A DNA stretch of 64,000 nucleotides from Kineosporiaceae bacterium. Lineage in GTDB: Bacteria; Actinomycetota; Actinomycetes; Actinomycetales; Kineosporiaceae. Both the position numbers and the translations under genes were made by a program. Shown in pieces: positions 48,615 through 62,066 of this stretch (positions within the stretch are counted from its first letter, which is position 1; each line of letters opens with the position of its first letter). Where the stretch lies: assembly GCA_016794595.1 (NCBI GenBank), contig JAEUJN010000054.1:24595-88594 (forward strand). Direction: 5' to 3'. The notes under the pieces are model-generated. The model saw nothing but the letters and a program-made list of their open reading frames with translations. It ran no database searches and was not told the origin of the DNA.

Positions 48615-49487
48615 TCAGCGGGCGGTGATCGCCTCGTGGAAGGCCAGCACGCGACGGGCCGTGTCGACGTGCAGGTTCTCGACCATGCGGCCGTTGTGCA
48701 CCACCACGCCCTTGCCCTCGGCGTTGGCCGCCTCGAAGGTGGCGATCAGCGCCCGGGCATCCTCGACGGCCGCCTCGGACGGCGCCCAGGCCTCGTTGCA
48801 CGGCCCGATCTGCCCCGGGTGGATCAGGGTTTTGCCGTCGAAGCCCAACTCCACGCCCTGGCGGCACTCGGCGGCGAAACCCTCGGCGTTCTTCACGTCG
48901 TTGTAGACCCCGTCGAGGATCGCCTTGCCGGTCGCCCGCGCGGCGAGCAGGCACAGCCCGAGCCCGGTCAGCAACGGCTGGCGGCCCGGGACATGTTCGG
49001 CGCGAAGCTCTTTGGCCAGGTCATTCGTTCCCATCACCAGCACGGCGAGTCGCTCGCTGGCGGCCGCGATCTGCTCGCAGTACAACATCGCGATCGGGGT
49101 CTCGACCATCGCCCAGATGAAGGTGTGGTCCGGCGCGCCGGCCGCCTCCATCGCGGCCTCGATGGTGCGCACGTCCTGCACGGAGGAGACCTTGGGGACG
49201 ACGATCCCACCCGGCCCGGCCTGGCTCGCCGCGACGATGTCGTCGGCAAACCAGTCGGTGTCCAGGCCGTTCACCCGGATGGTGAGCTCCTTGCGGCCGT
49301 ACTCCCCCGAGGTCGCCGCCGCGCAGACGCGTTCGCGCGCATCGGCTTTGCCGTCCGGAGCCACCGAGTCCTCGAGATCGAGGATCAGCGCGTCGGCGTC
49401 CAGGGCCTTGGCCTTCTCGAGTGCTCGTTCGTTGGCGCCGGGCATGTACAGCACGCTGCGCCGCGGGGTGAGGCTGGGGTCGGTCAC
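48615..49487 (-). CDS. HpcH/HpaI aldolase / CitE-like acyl-CoA lyase or thioesterase
   Basis: RSVLYMPGANERALEKAKALDADALILDLEDSVAP, MVETP, IHPGQI. Confidence 0.85.
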   Translation of the reverse strand: MTDPSLTPRRSVLYMPGANERALEKAKALDADALILDLEDSVAPDGKADARERVCAAATSGEYGRKELTIRVNGLDTDWFADDIVAASQAGPGGIVVPKVSSVQDVRTIEAAMEAAGAPDHTFIWAMVETPIAMLYCEQIAAASERLAVLVMGTNDLAKELRAEHVPGRQPLLTGLGLCLLAARATGKAILDGVYNDVKNAEGFAAECRQGVELGFDGKTLIHPGQIGPCNEAWAPSEAAVEDARALIATFEAANAEGKGVVVHNGRMVENLHVDTARRVLAFHEAITAR

Positions 49488-49498
49488 GCTGGTCTCCT

Positions 49499-50563
49499 TC
49501 AGAAGCCGTAGGCGGCAGCGAGTTCGGGGTCACGGGCAGCCAGCGCCCGGGCGAGGTCGACCTGCACCTGGCACTGCTTGCAGGAGGCGTCGTCCTCCAT
49601 CCGGCCGTCGAGCATGACCGCGCCGGTGCCGTCCCCCATGGCCTCGATCACCCGCAGGGCGTGCCTGACGTCCTTGGGGTCGGGGGAGAACACCTTCTTG
49701 GCGATGTCGACCTGCACCGGGTGCAGGCTCCAGGCGCCCACGCACCCCAGCAGGAAGGCGTTGCGGAACTGGTCCTCGCAGGCCACGACGTCCTTGATGT
49801 CGCCGAACGGGCCGTAATAGGCGTAGATGCCGTGGGTGGCGCAGGCGTCCACCATGCGCGCGATCGTGTAGTGCCACAGATCCTGCTGGAAGATCCCCCG
49901 GTCGGCCGTGTAGGCCAGGGCGCCGTCGTCCAGGGCCGGCGGGTCCTCGCGGACCAGGTAACCCGGGTGCCCGCCGCCGACCCGGGTGGTCTTCATCCGC
50001 CGGTTGGCCGCGAGGTCGGCGGGGCCGAGCGAGAGGCCCTGCATCCGCGGGCTCGCGCCGCAGATCTCCTCGACATTGGCCACACCGCGCGCGGTCTCGA
50101 GGATGGCGTGGATCAGGATCGGGCGGGTCAGCCCCGCCTTCGCCTCGAGCTGGGCGAGTAGCCGGTCGACATAGTGGATGTCCTCGGCGCCCTCGACCTT
50201 GGGCACCATGACGACGTCCAGCTTGCGCCCGATCGCCGGGACCAGCGTGGTCAGGTCGTCGAGCACCCAGGGCGAGTCGAGCGCGTTGACCCGGGTCCAC
50301 AACTGGGTGTCTCCGAAGTCGGTCGAGGAGGCGATCGCCACCAGCCCGGCGCGCGCGGCCTCCTTGTTCTCCGCCTTGACCGCGTCCTCCAGATTGCCCA
50401 GCAGGACGTCGACCTGGGCGGCCATCTGCGGCACCTTGGCGGCCATCTTGGCGTTCGAGGGATCGAAGAAGTGGATCATCCGTGAGGGCCGGAACGGGAT
50501 CTCCCGGGGCGGGGTCGGTGCCCCGACGGCGAGCGGACGGAAGAAGTCCTTCGGAGGGCGCAT
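49499..50563 (-). CDS. mclA: L-malyl-CoA/beta-methylmalyl-CoA lyase-like (Chloroflexus MclA type)
   Basis: Near-collinear with Chloroflexus aurantiacus MclA as I remember it: [90 protein letters not shown]. Start at ATG 50563. Confidence 0.8.
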
Positions 50564-50742
50564 GGCGATCAGCCTAGGGGCGGGCAGGATGCCCATTGCG
50601 TCGCGCTGGTCACACCCGGCGAACCGCTCTCGATACTCGATCGGGCGGCCACATGAGGCTTTTGCGGTCATTCATCGCTAGGGTGACCTCGCCCGGGGGG
50701 CGCATCGGCGCCCCGGCCACCCGGGCACCTCGGGAGGCCGAC

Positions 50743-53047: not shown

Positions 53048-55036
53048 TCAGCGCAACGACACCGCGCTCTCGCTCACCACGGCCCTCCCGGTCCCCGTGG
53101 TGGCCAGCACGCGCACGGTGACACTGTCGCCGGGCAGGTGGCCGACCGGCAGGTCGACGGAGGCCTCGCTCAACCCCACGGCGACCGTCTGCCAGGACTG
53201 CCCGCCGTCAGTGCTGAGCTGCACGGCGTAGCGCTGGGACGGCGGGGCCGCCGCAGCGTCCCAGGCCAGGTGCAGGACGCCACCGCTGACCACGGGCGGG
53301 GCCGCCCCGAACGCCGGGGCGTCGTTGCGGACCGCCGCGGGCTCAGCGGGTGCGCCGCCGATCGGGTGCTCGGCGACCACCGCGCCGTTCAGCAGGAGCT
53401 GCAGTCGGGCCGCGCCGTCCGGGTCGGGCAGGTCGACGTCCACCGTGCCGGTGACCTCCTGATCGGGGGCCTCGCACGCGCTGCGGCGCAGCGGCACCGT
53501 GAGCTGTTCGAGAACGGTGTCGTCCGCGGCCAGGATGCGCACCGCGACCTCACCGGCCGGATCGGGCCCGGCAGCCTCGGGCGAGTCCCCTCCGCCGAAG
53601 TCGGAGGAGGGCAGCACCGCCGCGACCTCGGCCGTCCCGCGATCGAGGTTGAGCGAGGCGATCAAGCGCATGGTCGGTGATCCTCCAGGTGGGGCAGCGG
53701 CGCCGGCTGCTGCCAGCCCCAGGGCCGCTGCCGGGCCGGCGGGCAGGGCGTCCTCGGCGATCAGCCGGTCGTGGATCCCGGTGTAGGTGAACGCACTGAG
53801 CCACTGGTTGTCGCAGTAGCTCATCACGTCGTGCGAGCTGACGGGCGGGACGACGCGCAGCGGCAGGCCGAGCGCGGCGTCCCCGGTGTCGATGCCGACG
53901 AAGGCCTCGTCGGCATCGGAGAGCTGACCGTTCGGGTAGGGGTAGGGGGCACCGCCGCCGGCGCCGCAGAACTCGGCATGGAAGCGTCCGAGGGTGTGGC
54001 CCAGTTCGTGGGCGCCGTACCAGTCACCGTAGGAACCGTCGGTGTCCCAGGCGAATCCGGATGCCGCGGCCGGCCCGGAGGCGACGGTGCCGGGCTGGGG
54101 GGTCCCGGGGATGTCGGAGGCGAGCCCGCGCATGAAGAACCCGTCGGCGTCGACCATGCCGTAGTAGTGCGTCCGGGCGTCGGTCCCGGTGGCCACGTCG
54201 ACCGCCCGCAGGGCCAGCAGTTGGGCGTTGACCTGCGAGGCATCGAACTCGACCGGGGCACTCGCCGGGACGGTCACGGTGGTCAGCTCGACCCGGCTGA
54301 CCGGATAGGCGCGCCGCAGCCAGGACCGCAACAACTCGACGTCCGTGGTCGAGGGGGTGAAGGTGACCCCGTCCTGCACGTACGAGAGCAGGACCAACCG
54401 AAGCCGGAACGGCACCGCCGGGCCGAGAGTGAACCGGCGGCGGCGGACACCGGCCACGGACGGCACCGCGCCGGACCCGACGGCCCGGATCAGCCGGCCC
54501 ATCCGAAGGTAGAGCGGACCGGGGGTGGACACCAGGTCGTCGGGTAGCCGGAAGTTCAGGCTGAAGCCGAGATCGGCTCGGCGCGAACGCAATTGCGCAG
54601 GCGAGGTGCCCGAGCGGGACGGATCCAGCCGAGCTGTGCCGAGGGAGGCGACCGCCTGCCAGGGACCGGACGGCGACCGCGCCGCCAGGAGTTCGCCGCG
54701 CAGGGTGATCGCCCCTGCGGGCCGGCTGAGGTAGGCGCGCACGATGGTGGCCTTGCCCGCCACCAGCGGGACGGTGTGGGACAGGTCCTGGATCTCCTGG
54801 GTCACCTCGAGCCCGTCCAGGCGGACCACCGGCAGCAGCGGGACGCCGGCGGGCGCCGCGCGGCGTGCCCCGCCGTCCGGAGTCGACGAGGCCAGTGCTC
54901 GCTCGATCAGGCGTTCGGCGCCGGCCTCGTCATCCGCGACGGGGTCCTCTGCGAGCGCTCTGGTCAGTGCGCGGGCAAGTGCGGTCTCCTGACGCTGCTG
55001 CCTGGACACCCGCCGCCGTGACAGATCGAGTCCCAT
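53048..55036 (-). CDS. Large signal-less protein with a metzincin-type zinc-peptidase motif and a C-terminal Asp-box beta-domain
   Basis: HELGHTLGRFH fits HExxHxxGxxH. It is followed by SSHDVMSYC (Met-turn-like) and a C-terminal LSTDGGQSWQTV (SxDxGxxW Asp-box). The RBS GGGGGAGG precedes the ATG at 55036. The N-terminus (MGLDLSRRRVSRQQRQETALARAL) is not a signal peptide. Confidence 0.55.
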   Translation of the reverse strand: MGLDLSRRRVSRQQRQETALARALTRALAEDPVADDEAGAERLIERALASSTPDGGARRAAPAGVPLLPVVRLDGLEVTQEIQDLSHTVPLVAGKATIVRAYLSRPAGAITLRGELLAARSPSGPWQAVASLGTARLDPSRSGTSPAQLRSRRADLGFSLNFRLPDDLVSTPGPLYLRMGRLIRAVGSGAVPSVAGVRRRRFTLGPAVPFRLRLVLLSYVQDGVTFTPSTTDVELLRSWLRRAYPVSRVELTTVTVPASAPVEFDASQVNAQLLALRAVDVATGTDARTHYYGMVDADGFFMRGLASDIPGTPQPGTVASGPAAASGFAWDTDGSYGDWYGAHELGHTLGRFHAEFCGAGGGAPYPYPNGQLSDADEAFVGIDTGDAALGLPLRVVPPVSSHDVMSYCDNQWLSAFTYTGIHDRLIAEDALPAGPAAALGLAAAGAAAPPGGSPTMRLIASLNLDRGTAEVAAVLPSSDFGGGDSPEAAGPDPAGEVAVRILAADDTVLEQLTVPLRRSACEAPDQEVTGTVDVDLPDPDGAARLQLLLNGAVVAEHPIGGAPAEPAAVRNDAPAFGAAPPVVSGGVLHLAWDAAAAPPSQRYAVQLSTDGGQSWQTVAVGLSEASVDLPVGHLPGDSVTVRVLATTGTGRAVVSESAVSLR

Positions 55037-55183
55037 TCCTGCCTCCCCCTGCCCGAGCCGTCCGGACGGGCGGCTGTCTGCAGGTCAGAGCCTCGGGGGC
55101 GGGCCGTGATACGGCGGTGTGCAGGTCTCACCAGGGGAACGGCACCAACGCAGCGTCGGTGAAGGCGCCCCCGACGAGGGCTC

Positions 55184-56422
55184 TCACTCCACGGCCAGCA
55201 AACGGGTCAGCACCGCGGCCAGCGCCTGGGCCCCCATCTCGCAGTCGTCGGGCTCGGCGTACTCCGCCGGGGAGTGCGAGACCCCGGTCGGGTTGCGCAC
55301 GAACAGCATGGACGACGCCACTCCCGCCTGCGCGAGCACCCCGGCGTCGTGCCCCGCGCCGGTGGGCAGGACCGGGACCGGGCCCGAGCCGAGAGCGGCA
55401 CCGACGGCACCGGCCACCTCAGCCGCCAGGTCGGCGGGGAAGACGGTGGCCGCCGTCCAGGATTCCTGCACCGCCGCCTGCCCGATCGCCGCTTCCACGT
55501 CGACCAGCACGGCCCGCACCTGCTGCTCGGTGTCGGCGCGCACGTCCACCCACGCCCTCACCCCGGACGGGATGGCGTTCACCGCGTTCGGTGCCACCTC
55601 GACCTTGCCCACCGTGGCCAGCGCACCGTGACCGGACGCCGCGGCCCGCGCCACCGAGATCACCGTGGCCAGGGCGAGCATCGGATCATCCCGGTCGGCC
55701 AGCAGGGTGGTGCCGGCGTGATCGGCCCGGCCGGCCAGGTCGAGCCGGAACCGCCCGTGTGGCCGGATCGCGCTGGCCACCCCGACCGGCACGTTCAGCT
55801 CGGGCAGGGCGAGCGCGCGGCCCTGCTCGACGTGCAGTTCGACGAAACACCCCACCCGGCGCAGGGTCTCGTCGTCCCGGCCCATGTGGTCCGGGTTCAG
55901 CCCGCCGGCCCGGGCGGCCTCGGCATAGCTGACCCCCTCGGCGTCCCGCAGGGCCAGCACCGATGACGGGGCACTGATCCCGCTGAGCAACCGGCTCCCC
56001 GAGCAGGCCAGCCCGAACCGGGCGCCCTCCTCGTCGACGAACCGCACCAGCCCCAACGGACGTCCTCGAGCAGCGATCGCCTCGTCCAGAATTCCGTTGT
56101 CCCGCAACGCCTCGACGGCGACCAGCGCGGCCGCGACCCCCAGGGGACCGTCCATCGGGCCCCCGTCGGGCACCGAGTCGAGATGGCTTCCGGTGACCAC
56201 CCCCGGCCTGCCGCGGGCGGCCGCCCGGTCCGGATCGCCCCACCAGGCCCACTGGTTCCCACACCGGTCCACGGTGACGTCCGCCCCGAGTGCCCTCACC
56301 CGCGCGGCGAACCACTCGCCCAGGGCGACGTCGTCCGCGGTGAAGGCGAATCTGCGGTATCCACCCGTGATCCGGTCGCGGCCGATGGTCGCGATCTCCT
56401 CCAGCAGGCCAGTGACCCTCAT
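55184..56422 (-). CDS. M20-family amidohydrolase (allantoate amidohydrolase / N-carbamoyl-amino-acid hydrolase type; probable N-formylglutamate-hydrolysing step of hut)
   Basis: TGSHLDSVPDGGPMDGPLG, FVDEEGARFG, ELHVEQG, DHAGTT, GAGHDAG. Positioned between hutU and hutF. Confidence 0.8.
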   Translation of the reverse strand: MRVTGLLEEIATIGRDRITGGYRRFAFTADDVALGEWFAARVRALGADVTVDRCGNQWAWWGDPDRAAARGRPGVVTGSHLDSVPDGGPMDGPLGVAAALVAVEALRDNGILDEAIAARGRPLGLVRFVDEEGARFGLACSGSRLLSGISAPSSVLALRDAEGVSYAEAARAGGLNPDHMGRDDETLRRVGCFVELHVEQGRALALPELNVPVGVASAIRPHGRFRLDLAGRADHAGTTLLADRDDPMLALATVISVARAAASGHGALATVGKVEVAPNAVNAIPSGVRAWVDVRADTEQQVRAVLVDVEAAIGQAAVQESWTAATVFPADLAAEVAGAVGAALGSGPVPVLPTGAGHDAGVLAQAGVASSMLFVRNPTGVSHSPAEYAEPDDCEMGAQALAAVLTRLLAVE

Positions 56423-57816
56423 TGCTCAGCACCCTTCATGGTCGGGCCCGACGCCTCGGGCACCCGGGACAGCACGGCCTCGAGCACCGGCGTCGCCAGG
56501 GCGAGCCGGTGCGCCCGGATCACCAGGTCCCACAACGGCTCGAACTTCCTCCAGCCCGCGGCATAGGCCAGGTGTTTGGCGCGGTGGCGGGCCGAGGCGT
56601 GGGTGCCCGCGGCGCGCGCGATGGCCGACCAGCGGTAGAAATCCCGATAGGCCCGGTGGTAGCCGTCCAGCAGTTGCCCGGCGGTGAGCCGTGCCGGACG
56701 GTACACGACGTGGCGGGTGTCGTACTCGTCCCAGTCGTGGCTGGTGATCCGGCCCTGGGCAGCCAGCATGTCGTGGAGCCGCGTTCCCGGGTACGGGGTC
56801 TGGATGTGAAAGGTGCACGTGGTCACCCCGTGATCGACCGCCCAGCCGACCGTGCGGTCGAAGACCTCCGGCCCGTCGTCGTCCATCCCGAACACGAACG
56901 ATCCGTTGATCATCACTCCCAGGTCACTCAGCCGCCGGGCCACCGCGGCATAGTCACGAGACAGGTTTTGGTGCTTGTTGCCGGCGCGCAGGTTCGCCGG
57001 GCTGAAGGTCTCGAACCCCACGAACAGGCTGCGCAGGCCCGCCTCGGCGGCCCGCTCGATCAGGTCACCCCGCAACACCGAGTCGACCGTGGCTGCCCCC
57101 TGGAAGATCCGGTTCATCCCGCGCATCCCCGCGAACAGCTCCCGCGCGAACCGGGCATTACCGAGCAGGTGATCGTCCAGGAAGTACAGGTGCCGGCCCG
57201 GCAGACGATCGATCTCGGCCAGAGCGGCATCGACCCGCTGGACGTAGAAACCGTCACCGCCGGCGAAGAAGGCATCCTTGTAACAGAAATCGCAGTGCCG
57301 AGGACACCCGCGGGAGACCACGATCGAGTTGGGCACCAGATACCGGTTGCGCCGGATCAGCTCGCGCCGCACCGGCGGCAGGTCCTGGATCGTGCGCCCA
57401 TGGGTCGAGACGTACCTGGACGCCGGGTGCCCGGCCCGCACATCAGCCAGGAATGCCGGGAAGGTCTGCTCCCCCGGCCCGAGGAACACGTGGTCGGCGT
57501 GCCCGGCCGCCTCCTCGGGCAGAGAGGTCACGTGCAGCCCGCCGAGGGCGACCCGGCATCCCTTGGCGCGGTAGTGATCCGCGATGGCGTAGGCGCGTCG
57601 GGCATTGGTGATGTAGACCTGGATCACCACCAGGTCGGGGACGTCGTCCAGGTCGAGCCGCTCGACGTGATCGTCGACCAGCTGCGCCTCGTCGTCCGGG
57701 CCCAGGTGGGCCGCGAGCGTCGCCAGCCCCAACGGCGGGAAGAGGGAGTACTTGACCGGGCGCCAGGCCGGGCTCCTCGCCTCGGCCAGCGCCGGCAGGA
57801 TGAACTTGACGAACAT
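56419..57816 (-). CDS. B12-binding-domain radical SAM protein
   Basis: The N-terminal Rossmann-like region (KYSLFPPLGLATLAAHL ... DLVVIQVYITNA ... VALGGLHVT) precedes the radical SAM cluster motif GCPRHCDFC. The stop overlaps the M20 start (ATGA). Confidence 0.85.
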   Translation of the reverse strand: MFVKFILPALAEARSPAWRPVKYSLFPPLGLATLAAHLGPDDEAQLVDDHVERLDLDDVPDLVVIQVYITNARRAYAIADHYRAKGCRVALGGLHVTSLPEEAAGHADHVFLGPGEQTFPAFLADVRAGHPASRYVSTHGRTIQDLPPVRRELIRRNRYLVPNSIVVSRGCPRHCDFCYKDAFFAGGDGFYVQRVDAALAEIDRLPGRHLYFLDDHLLGNARFARELFAGMRGMNRIFQGAATVDSVLRGDLIERAAEAGLRSLFVGFETFSPANLRAGNKHQNLSRDYAAVARRLSDLGVMINGSFVFGMDDDGPEVFDRTVGWAVDHGVTTCTFHIQTPYPGTRLHDMLAAQGRITSHDWDEYDTRHVVYRPARLTAGQLLDGYHRAYRDFYRWSAIARAAGTHASARHRAKHLAYAAGWRKFEPLWDLVIRAHRLALATPVLEAVLSRVPEASGPTMKGAEQ

Positions 57817-57855
57817 TCCTGGAATCCCTCCCCGACGGATCGATCCCGGCAGCGA

Positions 57856-59580
57856 TCAGCTCCCCTCACCCTCTGGCTCACTCTCCCGCATGGGCACTCG
57901 AACCCCCCGCTCGGACGCCACGCGGATCGCCTCGGGATAGCCCGCGTCCACGTGCCGGATCACTCCCATCTCCGGGTCGTTGGTCAGCACTCGGGCCAGT
58001 TTGGCTGCGGCGAGCGGGGTTCCGTCCGCGACGCTGACCTGACCGGCGTGAATCGACCGTCCGATCCCGACGCCGCCGCCGTGGTGGATCGAGACCCACG
58101 TGGCCCCGGACGACGCCGCGACCAGCCCGTTGAGCAACGGCCAGTCGGCGATCGCGTCCGACCCGTCGAGCATGGCCTCGGTCTCCCGGTAGGGGCTGGC
58201 CACCGAGCCGCAGTCGAGATGGTCCCGCCCGATCACGATCGGCGCGCTGATCTCACCCGAGGCGACCAGTTCGTTGAACCGCAGCCCGGCGACGTCCCGC
58301 TCGCCGTGACCCAACCAGCAGATCCGCGCCGGCATCCCCTGGAAGGCGACCTTCTCGGACGCCGCACGCAGCCACTTCTGCAGGTGGTCGTTGTCGGGGA
58401 ACAACTCCGCGACCGCGCGGTCGGTCACCGCGATGTCGCGCGGGTCGCCGGACAGTGCCGCCCAGCGGAAGGGACCCTTGCCCTCGCAGAACAGCGGGCG
58501 GATGTAGGCCGGCACGAACCCCGGGAAGGCGAAGGCGCGCTCGTAACCACCCTGGCGCGCCTCGTCGCGGATCGAGTTGCCGTAGTCGAACACCTCGGCT
58601 CCGGCGTCCAGGTACCCGACCATCGCCTCGACGTGTCGGGCCATCGAGGCCCGGGCCCGGTCGGTGAACTCCTCCGGCTTGGCCTCGGCGTAGTCGTGCC
58701 AGTCGGCCAGGTCGGTGCCCTCGGGCAGGTAGGCCAGCGGGTCGTGCGCACTGGTCTGGTCGGTGACGATGTCGACCTCGACGCCACGGCGGAGCAGTTC
58801 GGGGAGCACGACCGCGCAGTTGCCGACCAGCCCCACTGACAGGGCGCGGCCCTCGGCCTTGGCGGCGAGCACCCGGCGCAGCGCGTCGTCCAGGGCCGCC
58901 TCCCCCTCGCCGGTCGCCAGCTCGTCCAGGTACCGGGTCTCCACCCGGCGCTGCAGCCGGTGCGGGTCGACGTCCACGACCAGGCAGACCCCGTCGTTCA
59001 GGGTGACCGCGAGCGGCTGGGCCCCACCCATTCCGCCACAGCCCCCGGTCACGGTGAGCGTGCCCCGCAGGCTGCCCCCGAACCGCTTGGCCGCCACCGC
59101 GGCGAAGGTCTCGTAGGTGCCCTGCAGGATGCCCTGGGTGCCGATGTAGATCCAGGACCCTGCGGTCATCTGCCCGTACATGGTCAGGCCGAGGTGCTCC
59201 AGGCGCCGGAACTCCGGCCACGTGGCCCAGTCGCCGACCAGGTTGGAGTTGGCGATCAGCACCCGGGGCGCCCACTCGTGGGTGCGCATCACCCCTACCG
59301 GCCGGCCGGACTGCACCAGCAGCGTCTCGTCGTCCGCCAGGCTGGTCAGCGTGCGCACGATGGCGTCGAAGCTCGCCCAGTCGCGGGCGGCCTTGCCGGT
59401 GCCGCCGTAGACGACCAAGTCGTCGGGCCGCTCGGCGACGTCCGGGTCGAGGTTGTTCATCAGCATGCGCAGCGGCGCCTCGGTCTGCCAGGAGCGCGCG
59501 GTCAACCGGGTCCCGCGCGGGGCACGGACCGAGCGGACGACACGGGCCTCGTGCGGGTCGGGCGGGGTCGAGGCGCTCAT
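57856..59580 (-). CDS. hutU: Urocanate hydratase
   Basis: [49 protein letters not shown] 59580 is preceded by AAGGAG; the upstream part of the track ORF is discarded. Confidence 0.97.
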
Positions 59581-59682: not shown

Positions 59683-59700
59683 TGTCTGAGATGCCAGACA
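59683..59700. promoter_or_regulatory. Candidate hut operator palindrome upstream of hutU
   Basis: TGTCTG-AGATGC-CAGACA, nested inside an outer inverted repeat ACCCGGTGA (59671-59679) / TCACCGGGT (59705-59713). The same TGTCTG-N6-CAGACA lies upstream of hutH. Confidence 0.55.
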
Positions 59701-59734: not shown

Positions 59735-60397
59735 GTGATGCCGAGCCCACGCGCCACGCCTGTCAGGACGCTGGTCGCGGCCATCGCGTTGCTCCCCGCA
59801 ACGGCCTGGCCCGCTCCCGCGGCCACGACCCCGGCCACCCTCCCACCCTTCACCTACAACGTGCACCGGGTGAGCGCGGCCGAACTCGGGGCATCGTGGC
59901 GTTCGGGATGCCCGGTCGCCCCGTCCTCCCTGCGCCGGATCAGGATGACCCACCTGGGCTGGGACGGCCGGGCCCGCACCGGGGATCTCGTGGTGCACAA
60001 CGACATCGCCGGACCGACCGTGGTCGCCTTCCGCCGGCTCTACACCCAGCGCTTCCCGATCCGGTCGATGCGCCCGATCTCGGTCTTCGGCGGCTCCGAC
60101 GACCGGTCGATGGCCGCCGACAACACCTCGGGATTCAACTGCCGCAAGGTCACCGGCGGCACGGGGTGGTCGCGACACGCCTTCGGGCGCGCGATCGACC
60201 TCAACCCGGTCGAGAACCCCTACGTGAAGGGCGCCACCGTGCTGCCGCCCGCCGGTGCCGCCTACGTCCGCCGCACCCCGGCCCGCAAGGGCATGCTGGT
60301 CGCCGGCACCCTGCCGGTCACCACCTTCACCGGCTACGGCTGGAGCTGGGGCGGAAACTACCGCTCGCTGAAGGACTTCCAGCACCTCGAACGTTGA
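59735..60397 (+). CDS. Secreted M15-family (VanY / D-Ala-D-Ala carboxypeptidase-like) metallopeptidase
   Basis: Signal peptide ([20 protein letters not shown]), [13 protein letters not shown], and the C-terminal DFQHLE. Confidence 0.7.
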
Positions 60398-62048: not shown

Positions 62049-62066
62049 TGTCTGTCATCTCAGACA
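62049..62066. promoter_or_regulatory. Candidate hut operator palindrome upstream of hutH
   Basis: TGTCTG-TCATCT-CAGACA, preceded by GATGC exactly as at the hutU site. It lies 44-61 bp upstream of the hutH start. Confidence 0.55.

Follow-up and report, generated by a model that had tools for sequence, protein, structure and literature searches.

A radical SAM gene within the hut operon of a Kineosporiaceae bacterium is probably a single-gene passenger belonging to an uncharacterised, highly conserved family

We analysed a 64,000-nucleotide (nt) stretch of DNA from a Kineosporiaceae bacterium (contig JAEUJN010000054.1, positions 24,595 to 88,594), referred to below as the window. It contains the genes of a histidine utilization (hut) operon and, between hutU and the gene of an M20 amidohydrolase, a gene for a radical S-adenosylmethionine (SAM) enzyme, here named rSAM. 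An earlier note on this DNA had described a 465-amino-acid (aa) protein with a cobalamin-binding-like Rossmann region and a CPRHCDFC motif. Translation and matches to PF02310 and PF04055 confirmed this description, and we add that the gene is located on the minus strand. The note had considered that the gene may be a hitch-hiker, or that the enzyme may have a peptide or a metabolite derived from histidine or imidazole as its substrate. The gene, its parts and its two junctions are the following.

56419-57816, minus strand: rSAM gene, intact, ATG start, 465 aa (open reading frame [ORF], translation, Pfam)
57451-57741, minus strand: N-terminal Rossmann, B12-binding-like domain of rSAM, residues 26-122 (PF02310)
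56851-57324, minus strand: radical SAM core, residues 165-322 (PF04055)
57283-57306, minus strand: CPRHCDFC [4Fe-4S] cluster motif, C171-x3-C175-x2-C178 (direct sequence reading)
56419-56466, minus strand: lineage-specific C-terminal tail beyond LEAVLSRV, PEASGPTMKGAEQ followed by the stop codon (comparison with genome G005, see below)
57856-59580, minus strand: hutU (urocanate hydratase), upstream operon gene (TIGR01228, 879.6 bits)
57817-57855, minus strand: 39-nt spacer between hutU and rSAM with the Shine-Dalgarno sequence GGGGAGGG of the GGAGG type (sequence)
56419-56422, minus strand: ATGA overlap in which rSAM ends and the M20 gene begins (junctions compared between the window and 10 relatives)
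55184-56422, minus strand: gene of the M20 amidohydrolase of the actinobacterial hut operon, downstream gene (NF006770, "allantoate amidohydrolase", 496 bits)

The hutU stop codon occupies positions 57858-57856 and the ATG of rSAM positions 57816-57814. Thus, the short spacer reported previously is present, although its measured length is 39 nt and not 40 nt. At the downstream junction, the TGA of rSAM (56421-56419) overlaps the ATG of the M20 gene (56422-56420), and the overlap of stop and start noticed in the earlier note holds.

Both domains of the rSAM protein scored above their Pfam cut-offs. PF04055 was matched with 41.8 bits (cut-off 29.5), and the PF02310 match was marginal (36.8 bits, cut-off 32.1). 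Pfam revealed no SPASM, RRE or PqqD domain in the protein. A C-terminal extension of the DUF4070 type, which the earlier note had proposed to look for, is missing: at E≤0.01, neither DUF4070 (PF13282) nor any other C-terminal Pfam domain was found. The AlphaFold2 (AF2) model (pLDDT 80.5, pTM 0.83) shows a Rossmann-like beta/alpha alternation at residues 2-127 and a C-terminal helical bundle at residues 379-448, and Foldseek aligned it to radical SAM structures with a probability of 1.00. The cluster residues C171, C175 and C178 are unchanged across a 25-sequence alignment of the family. Cluster motif, profile and fold all make the protein a member of the radical SAM superfamily. Since more than 8000 database homologues exist, the best with approximately 80% identity, rSAM is not a chance ORF. 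The host genome encodes seven B12-binding domains and CobS and harbors a cobalamin riboswitch. Cobalamin would therefore be available, which permits its use by the enzyme and does not prove it; a putative role of cobalamin as a methyl carrier is possible.

The gene shows no sign of decay. All of the 190-plus positions that are invariant in the 25-member alignment are kept in the window protein, and dN/dS against the orthologues is 0.15-0.23. The GC content at third codon positions (GC3) is 0.89, inside the host range of 0.86-0.95, while the overall GC content is 0.69 versus 0.72-0.75 in the flanks. We conclude from these comparisons that rSAM is intact and under purifying selection.

To place the gene in the context of hut operons, we compared the hut loci of 10 related genomes. 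Six share the genus of the window, as does the additional genome G005; one represents another genus of the family, and two belong to other families. Their hutU genes are 82-93% identical to that of the window. The M20 gene directly follows hutU in 10/10 relatives, and hutF directly follows the M20 gene in seven of them. At eight of the 10 hutU-M20 junctions, the TGA of hutU overlaps the GTG of the M20 gene as GTGA. A distance of 1.43 kb between hutU and the M20 gene was found in the window alone, and none of the 10 relatives has rSAM in its hut operon. Genome G005 does harbor an rSAM gene, on contig C17, and has an uninterrupted hutH-hutU-M20-hutF operon on contig C19. Compared to the canonical actinobacterial operon (hutH, hutU, M20, hutF, with hutI apart), the window contains all genes in the same order and orientation and differs by three added genes, namely an M15 peptidase gene, rSAM and the gene of a 662-aa HExxH protein. 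This comparison shows that rSAM was inserted into a pre-existing operon.

The insertion was then analyzed at the base level. In blastn, the G005 copy aligns to rSAM at the DNA level from window position 57815, one base inside the ATG, to 48 nt before the stop codon. The homology ends after the conserved LEAVLSRV, and the tails of the family members are variable beyond LEAVLS[KR]V. The 39-nt spacer upstream of rSAM has no homology to the sequence upstream of the G005 copy. The M20 gene starts as ATGA in the window, versus the G of GTGA in eight of 10 relatives, and the codons that follow are homologous. As judged from these junctions, the rSAM frame most likely ends on the same TGA that terminates hutU in the relatives. 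If so, the ATGA coupling to the M20 gene would be inherited from the former hutU-M20 overlap. We also aligned the end of rSAM to hutU 3' ends. The last approximately 45 nt reached a local score of 25 with the hutU 3' end of genome G001, for which shuffled sequences gave a 95th percentile of 19 and a maximum of 26, and one of five such comparisons exceeded the 95% null. This is suggestive only; the end of hutU may have undergone a short duplication where rSAM was inserted. In an empty-site analysis, the regions around the G005 copy lacked a syntenic counterpart in the genome of the window and gave no hint of the direction of relocation.

Next, we looked at where orthologues occur and whether they are linked to hut genes. 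A whole-genome search detected rSAM orthologues (62-78% identity) in four of 41 related genomes, including that of the window. The three other actinobacterial orthologues have no hut genes within approximately 9 kb, and their neighbours are mutually unrelated: Polyketide_cyc2, DUF6855 and glyoxalase genes at one locus, MarR and phosphoribosyltransferase (PRTase) genes at another, and thioredoxin-like and ammonium transporter (Amt) genes at the third. In a search of 5.8 billion protein clusters, the exact window protein was listed for a single contig only. Among its homologues, the best (77-81% identity) belong to Sphingomonas, Allosphingosinicella and other Alphaproteobacteria. When one genome per species was scanned, at least 579 relatives of the protein were obtained, of which the best 80 loci were taken; these originate from Sphingomonadales, Parvularculales, many Acidobacteriota, one Flavobacteriales metagenome-assembled genome (MAG) and one Actinomycetota MAG.

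Altogether, 84 non-redundant orthologue loci (62-80% identity), mostly with 10 kb on each side, were searched by tblastn with the hut proteins of the window. Any hut gene within 10 kb was found at only two of them, and neither arrangement is operonic. At the locus of Sphingomonas sp. BE123 (L040), a periplasmic binding-protein gene separates rSAM from hutU, which is encoded 3.7 kb away on the opposite strand. The second locus belongs to a Ca. Angelobacter MAG (L060); there, hutH is located 1.5 kb upstream, separated by an SseB gene and an opposite-strand tautomerase gene. Since 0.4-0.8 such loci are expected by a rough chance estimate, hut genes are not enriched around the orthologues. Six further contexts, three of them those of the nearest database homologues, contained no hut genes in their Pfam gene tables. 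Judged as a hut component, the family thus lacks conserved co-location with hut genes across genomes. The earlier note had proposed to check co-occurrence with hut genes and had held that a lack of association outside this strain would speak against its idea of a functional link; the 84 loci, the three actinobacterial orthologues and the 10 relatives show this lack of association. Its alternative of a hitch-hiking gene is supported by the absence of rSAM from the operon of 10/10 relatives and by the 84 other loci, which are not hut-linked.

The two other added genes and a palindrome that may control the operon are located as follows.

53048-55036, minus strand: gene of the 662-aa HExxH protein, second lineage-specific insertion, between the M20 gene and hutF (absent from the loci of the relatives)
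59735-60397, plus strand: M15 peptidase gene, third insertion, separating hutH from hutU and opposite to them in strand (PF13539, 68 bits)
59683-59700, plus strand: palindrome TGTCTG-N6-CAGACA upstream of hutU, candidate hut operator (exact-match count)

The 662-aa protein contains the zinc-protease-like motif HELGHTLGRFH and matched no Pfam or NCBIfam family. Neither the hut loci of the 10 relatives nor any of the rSAM orthologue loci encode it. The M15 peptidase is of the M15_4 type, a D-Ala-D-Ala carboxypeptidase family (PF13539); in the relatives, the gap between hutH and hutU measures only approximately 90-220 nt and contains no M15 gene. We considered that rSAM was acquired together with one of these genes and rejected this, as neither was found near any rSAM orthologue. 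The nearest relative, the same-genus genome G001, carries a different insert of 5 kb at the M20-hutF junction (L099, G001:C16, 3113-8073), with an AbiEi/AbiEii toxin-antitoxin pair and a SnoaL-like gene. In genome G003, no hutF was found within 8 kb after the M20 gene (L100, G003:C1, beyond 9279). Within the genus, insertions seem to concentrate at the M20-hutF junction, and its hut operon is a repeated target of accessory insertions, among them rSAM.

The remaining hut genes of the window were assigned by NCBIfam (hutF: NF006681, 596 bits; hutH: NF006871, 671 bits, and TIGR01225, 641 bits), and hutI is located at 43402-42164, apart from the others. Next to hutF, at 48615-50671 on the minus strand, there are two adjoining genes of the HpcH/HpaI family (CitE / malyl-CoA-lyase-like). 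Genes of this family also adjoin the hut locus in several relatives (L102, L103, L104, L105).

No promoter- or terminator-like site and no Rfam element was found between hutU and hutF. Two exact copies of the palindrome TGTCTG-N6-CAGACA exist in the 64-kb window, one preceding hutU and one preceding hutH (62049-62066), compared to 0.09 copies expected by chance. The palindrome is a candidate operator of a hut repressor that would also control the inserted rSAM gene. Because of the 39-nt spacer, the lack of a promoter, terminator or Rfam element, and the candidate operator before hutU, rSAM is likely co-transcribed with hutU and the M20 gene under hut control.

We then compared the protein to characterised radical SAM enzymes. 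It is 70-79% identical over its full length to 24 family members, with a mean column identity of 76%, and belongs to one 50%-identity cluster only, to whose representative it is 71% identical. The members are collinear, approximately 470 aa long and found in Sphingomonadales, Acidobacteriota and others. Thirteen matches to NCBIfam equivalogs (HpnJ, BchE, HpnR, ApyD, AprD4, PhpK, MgmA and ladderane rSAM) were all far below the cut-offs, the best being HpnJ (70.4 versus 577.6 bits), BchE (61 versus 481) and HpnR (60 versus 650). Ten more distant relatives (31-51% identity) were likewise below every equivalog cut-off. Thus, the comparison with characterised class B enzymes proposed in the earlier note gave no assignment, and no description of this family was found in the literature on radical SAM enzymes. 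The family is uncharacterised and extremely conserved, with 70-80% identity across Actinomycetota, Alphaproteobacteria, Acidobacteriota and Bacteroidota; its window member is an enzyme of a known kind, a radical SAM enzyme with a B12-binding-like domain.

Among known structures, the best fold match is AprD4, the radical SAM 1,2-diol dehydratase of apramycin biosynthesis (PDB 6fd2; Foldseek E 4e-17, TM 0.65-0.67, similar length), which is also the sole PDB sequence match below 1e-3. Both proteins have an N-terminal Rossmann-like domain followed by a radical SAM barrel. However, their identity is 18-20%, and the NCBIfam AprD4 score is 33 bits versus a cut-off of 500. In addition, AprD4 works with the reductase AprD3 in an aminoglycoside cluster, and no such partner or cluster is present at the window locus. 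AprD4 does not bind cobalamin despite its Rossmann-like domain (PMC12931638). The label of a class B, B12-dependent enzyme given by the earlier note is therefore supported by a PF02310 score above the cut-off and weakened by the marginality of this match and by the nature of the closest solved fold. The cobalamin-dependent methylases TsrM, TokK, CysS and MgmA (QCMT) share a Rossmann B12 domain and the radical SAM core with rSAM (Foldseek E 5e-11 to 3e-9, TM 0.56-0.61). They differ by an identity of only approximately 15-16%, with no sequence match reaching a family cut-off, and TsrM, CysS and TokK are 65-160 residues longer. HpnJ, HpnR and BchE, class B enzymes with hopanoid or tetrapyrrole substrates, gave the best scores among the NCBIfam sequence matches; the substrates of HpnJ and HpnR are isoprenoid lipids, which we also suspect from gene neighbourhoods for the rSAM family (see below). 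However, rSAM is not a member of these families, and no hopanoid or bacteriochlorophyll genes are located nearby.

The family tree broadly follows taxonomy, with clades of Sphingomonadales, Parvularculales and Acidobacteriota. The copies of the window and of G005 are sisters with a weak support of 71, and monophyly of all four actinobacterial copies was not rejected (p-AU 0.40). A recent transfer from Sphingomonadales, which the alphaproteobacterial best matches (approximately 80%) could suggest, was considered and not retained in view of the host-like GC3, the weakly supported sister copy in G005 and an actinobacterial monophyly that was not rejected, and for these reasons we name no donor. 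Genome G005 additionally harbors, at another locus, a distant B12-type paralogue with 32% identity (L010, G005:C1:226208-227380).

The gene neighbourhoods of the family were analyzed at the 84 loci by unbiased clustering of flanking ORFs of at least 90 aa, followed by Pfam and tblastn tabulation. At 24-29 of the loci, in Sphingomonadales and Acidobacteriaceae, a membrane protein of approximately 200 aa without a Pfam family and an HTH_34 regulator are encoded upstream on the same strand. A cis-prenyltransferase gene (UppS-like, PF01255) is located directly upstream of rSAM at 16 loci, mainly in Acidobacteriaceae. In the three Acidobacteriota genomes checked, this is an extra copy beside a second PF01255 gene, and in the two genomes with both copies intact it is the lower-scoring one. 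At seven loci, all from sphingomonads, and additionally at L111, a gene of DgkA (PF01219; undecaprenol/diacylglycerol kinase family) directly precedes rSAM, often overlapping its start. A divergent gene of a Bac_transf phosphoglycosyl transferase (PF02397) is the immediate upstream neighbour of rSAM at nine loci, mainly in Vicinamibacterales. Polyprenyl-phosphate genes thus stand beside rSAM in three clades, which hints at an isoprenoid or envelope carrier lipid as the substrate. Judging from these contexts, we favour an isoprenoid or envelope lipid over an imidazole compound as the likely substrate of the family.

A recurrent operon is common to Acidobacteriaceae and Sphingomonadales. It consists of genes for the approximately 200-aa membrane protein, HTH_34, optionally CreD or Ldi, a UppS paralogue or DgkA, rSAM and, optionally, a membrane protein of 178-198 aa. 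Examples are found at L085 (6572-11964), L031 (8201-11356) and L111 (5379-9000).

We propose that rSAM is an intact single-gene passenger that was inserted in this lineage alone at the end of hutU, is transcribed from the hut promoter and does not perform a step of histidine catabolism; we assign this explanation a probability of about 0.72. According to it, a single gene of approximately 1.43 kb, including its ribosome-binding spacer, would have been inserted where the hutU stop overlapped the M20 start, and its frame would run into the pre-existing hutU TGA. The coupling to the M20 gene would then be a legacy of the old hutU-M20 junction and would not have evolved for joint function. As rSAM has no detectable promoter of its own, its transcription as a hut passenger would start at the hutU promoter and be governed by the operator. 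The enzyme would reductively cleave SAM at the [4Fe-4S] cluster held by C171, C175 and C178, and the resulting 5'-deoxyadenosyl radical would attack an unactivated carbon.

The family itself may represent a novel type of radical SAM enzymes, possibly dependent on cobalamin. Its substrate would be a polyprenyl (undecaprenyl-type) phosphate or a different isoprenoid lipid of the envelope, edited, for instance, by C-methylation, and promoter capture would have brought the gene under histidine/urocanate control here. This is a tentative suggestion, and we consider it rather doubtful. Reviews of B12-dependent and of lipid-modifying radical SAM enzymes from 2026 mention no polyprenyl-modifying member.

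Several points weigh against these proposals. Membership in an operon and an ATGA overlap are classical signs of functional linkage. The two of 84 loci with nearby hut genes are not significant when compared to the chance expectation, but their number is not zero. No transposase or integrase gene and no flanking direct or inverted repeats beyond chance were found around the insert. With respect to the chemistry, the closest solved fold is that of the cobalamin-independent dehydratase AprD4, so that rSAM may catalyze methylation or another reaction. The polyprenyl-lipid idea is a hint from gene neighbourhood only and thus guilt by association, and none of the partners (UppS paralogue, DgkA, Bac_transf) accompanies rSAM in the genome of the window.

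The signs of functional linkage could mean that rSAM was recruited into histidine or imidazole metabolism, for example to act with the coupled M20 enzyme in methylating or rearranging an intermediate of the hut pathway or a side product derived from histidine. The position inside the operon 39 nt after hutU, the overlap with the M20 gene, the candidate operator upstream and the hut genes within 10 kb at two other loci fit this idea. However, the hut operon is complete and uninterrupted without rSAM in 10/10 relatives, and the overlap most likely reuses the old one between hutU and the M20 gene. Moreover, hundreds of species across phyla have proteins with 70-80% identity outside hut contexts, implying a single conserved substrate. 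The hut chemistry known so far does not require a radical step. Recruitment is thus unlikely, and the action on a histidine- or imidazole-derived metabolite that the earlier note had considered gained no support. Some B12-type radical SAM enzymes methylate peptides, and the same note had pointed to the 19-codon micro-ORF at 55128-55187 as a possible substrate. A role of rSAM in modifying a nearby small peptide, as in the biosynthesis of ribosomally synthesized and post-translationally modified peptides, would be in line with a weak NCBIfam match to ApyD (49.8 bits) and with a metagenomic homologue on a soil contig (L110, 8493-14323). There, the rSAM orthologue is followed by a Glyco_transf_17 gene and then by a cluster of PqqD, asparagine-synthase, ScmC-like and SPASM-rSAM genes, an arrangement seen once. 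The ApyD score is, however, far below the cut-off of 750, the protein lacks the SPASM, RRE and PqqD domains, and no recurrent small-ORF neighbour emerged at the 84 loci, where ORFs of at least 90 aa were considered. Furthermore, the micro-ORF lies beyond the M20 gene, in the spacer to the 662-aa protein gene, which has no counterpart in the seven relatives where the M20 gene abuts hutF. We regard a peptide substrate as highly improbable.

Finally, the patchy distribution (four of 41 genomes), the GC content slightly below that of the flanks and the alphaproteobacterial best matches would also fit a decaying, non-functional remnant of horizontal transfer or an assembly chimera of foreign DNA with the hut operon. 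Against this stand the full-length open frame with all family-invariant residues, the low dN/dS and the host-like GC3. In addition, both junctions are in register with functioning neighbours on a contig of 110 kb, and a sister copy exists in the same genus. Thus, we consider a remnant or chimera very unlikely and retain the explanation of an intact passenger gene.

For the hut pathway, this outcome is negative and clarifying: there is no evidence of a radical or B12-dependent step in histidine catabolism, and its unusual gene order arose by accident, through insertion into an operon prone to such events in this genus. The locus offers a clear case from nature in which a single gene without a promoter was inserted at an operon junction and probably took over an existing stop/start overlap. 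It illustrates that genes can inherit their "translational coupling", which is then not necessarily a sign of a common function. If the envelope-lipid suggestion is true, a nutrient signal would switch on envelope-lipid editing in this actinobacterium. The orphan family, which has no characterised member and repeatedly stands beside polyprenyl-phosphate genes, deserves biochemical study, for which loci other than this one would be the better start.

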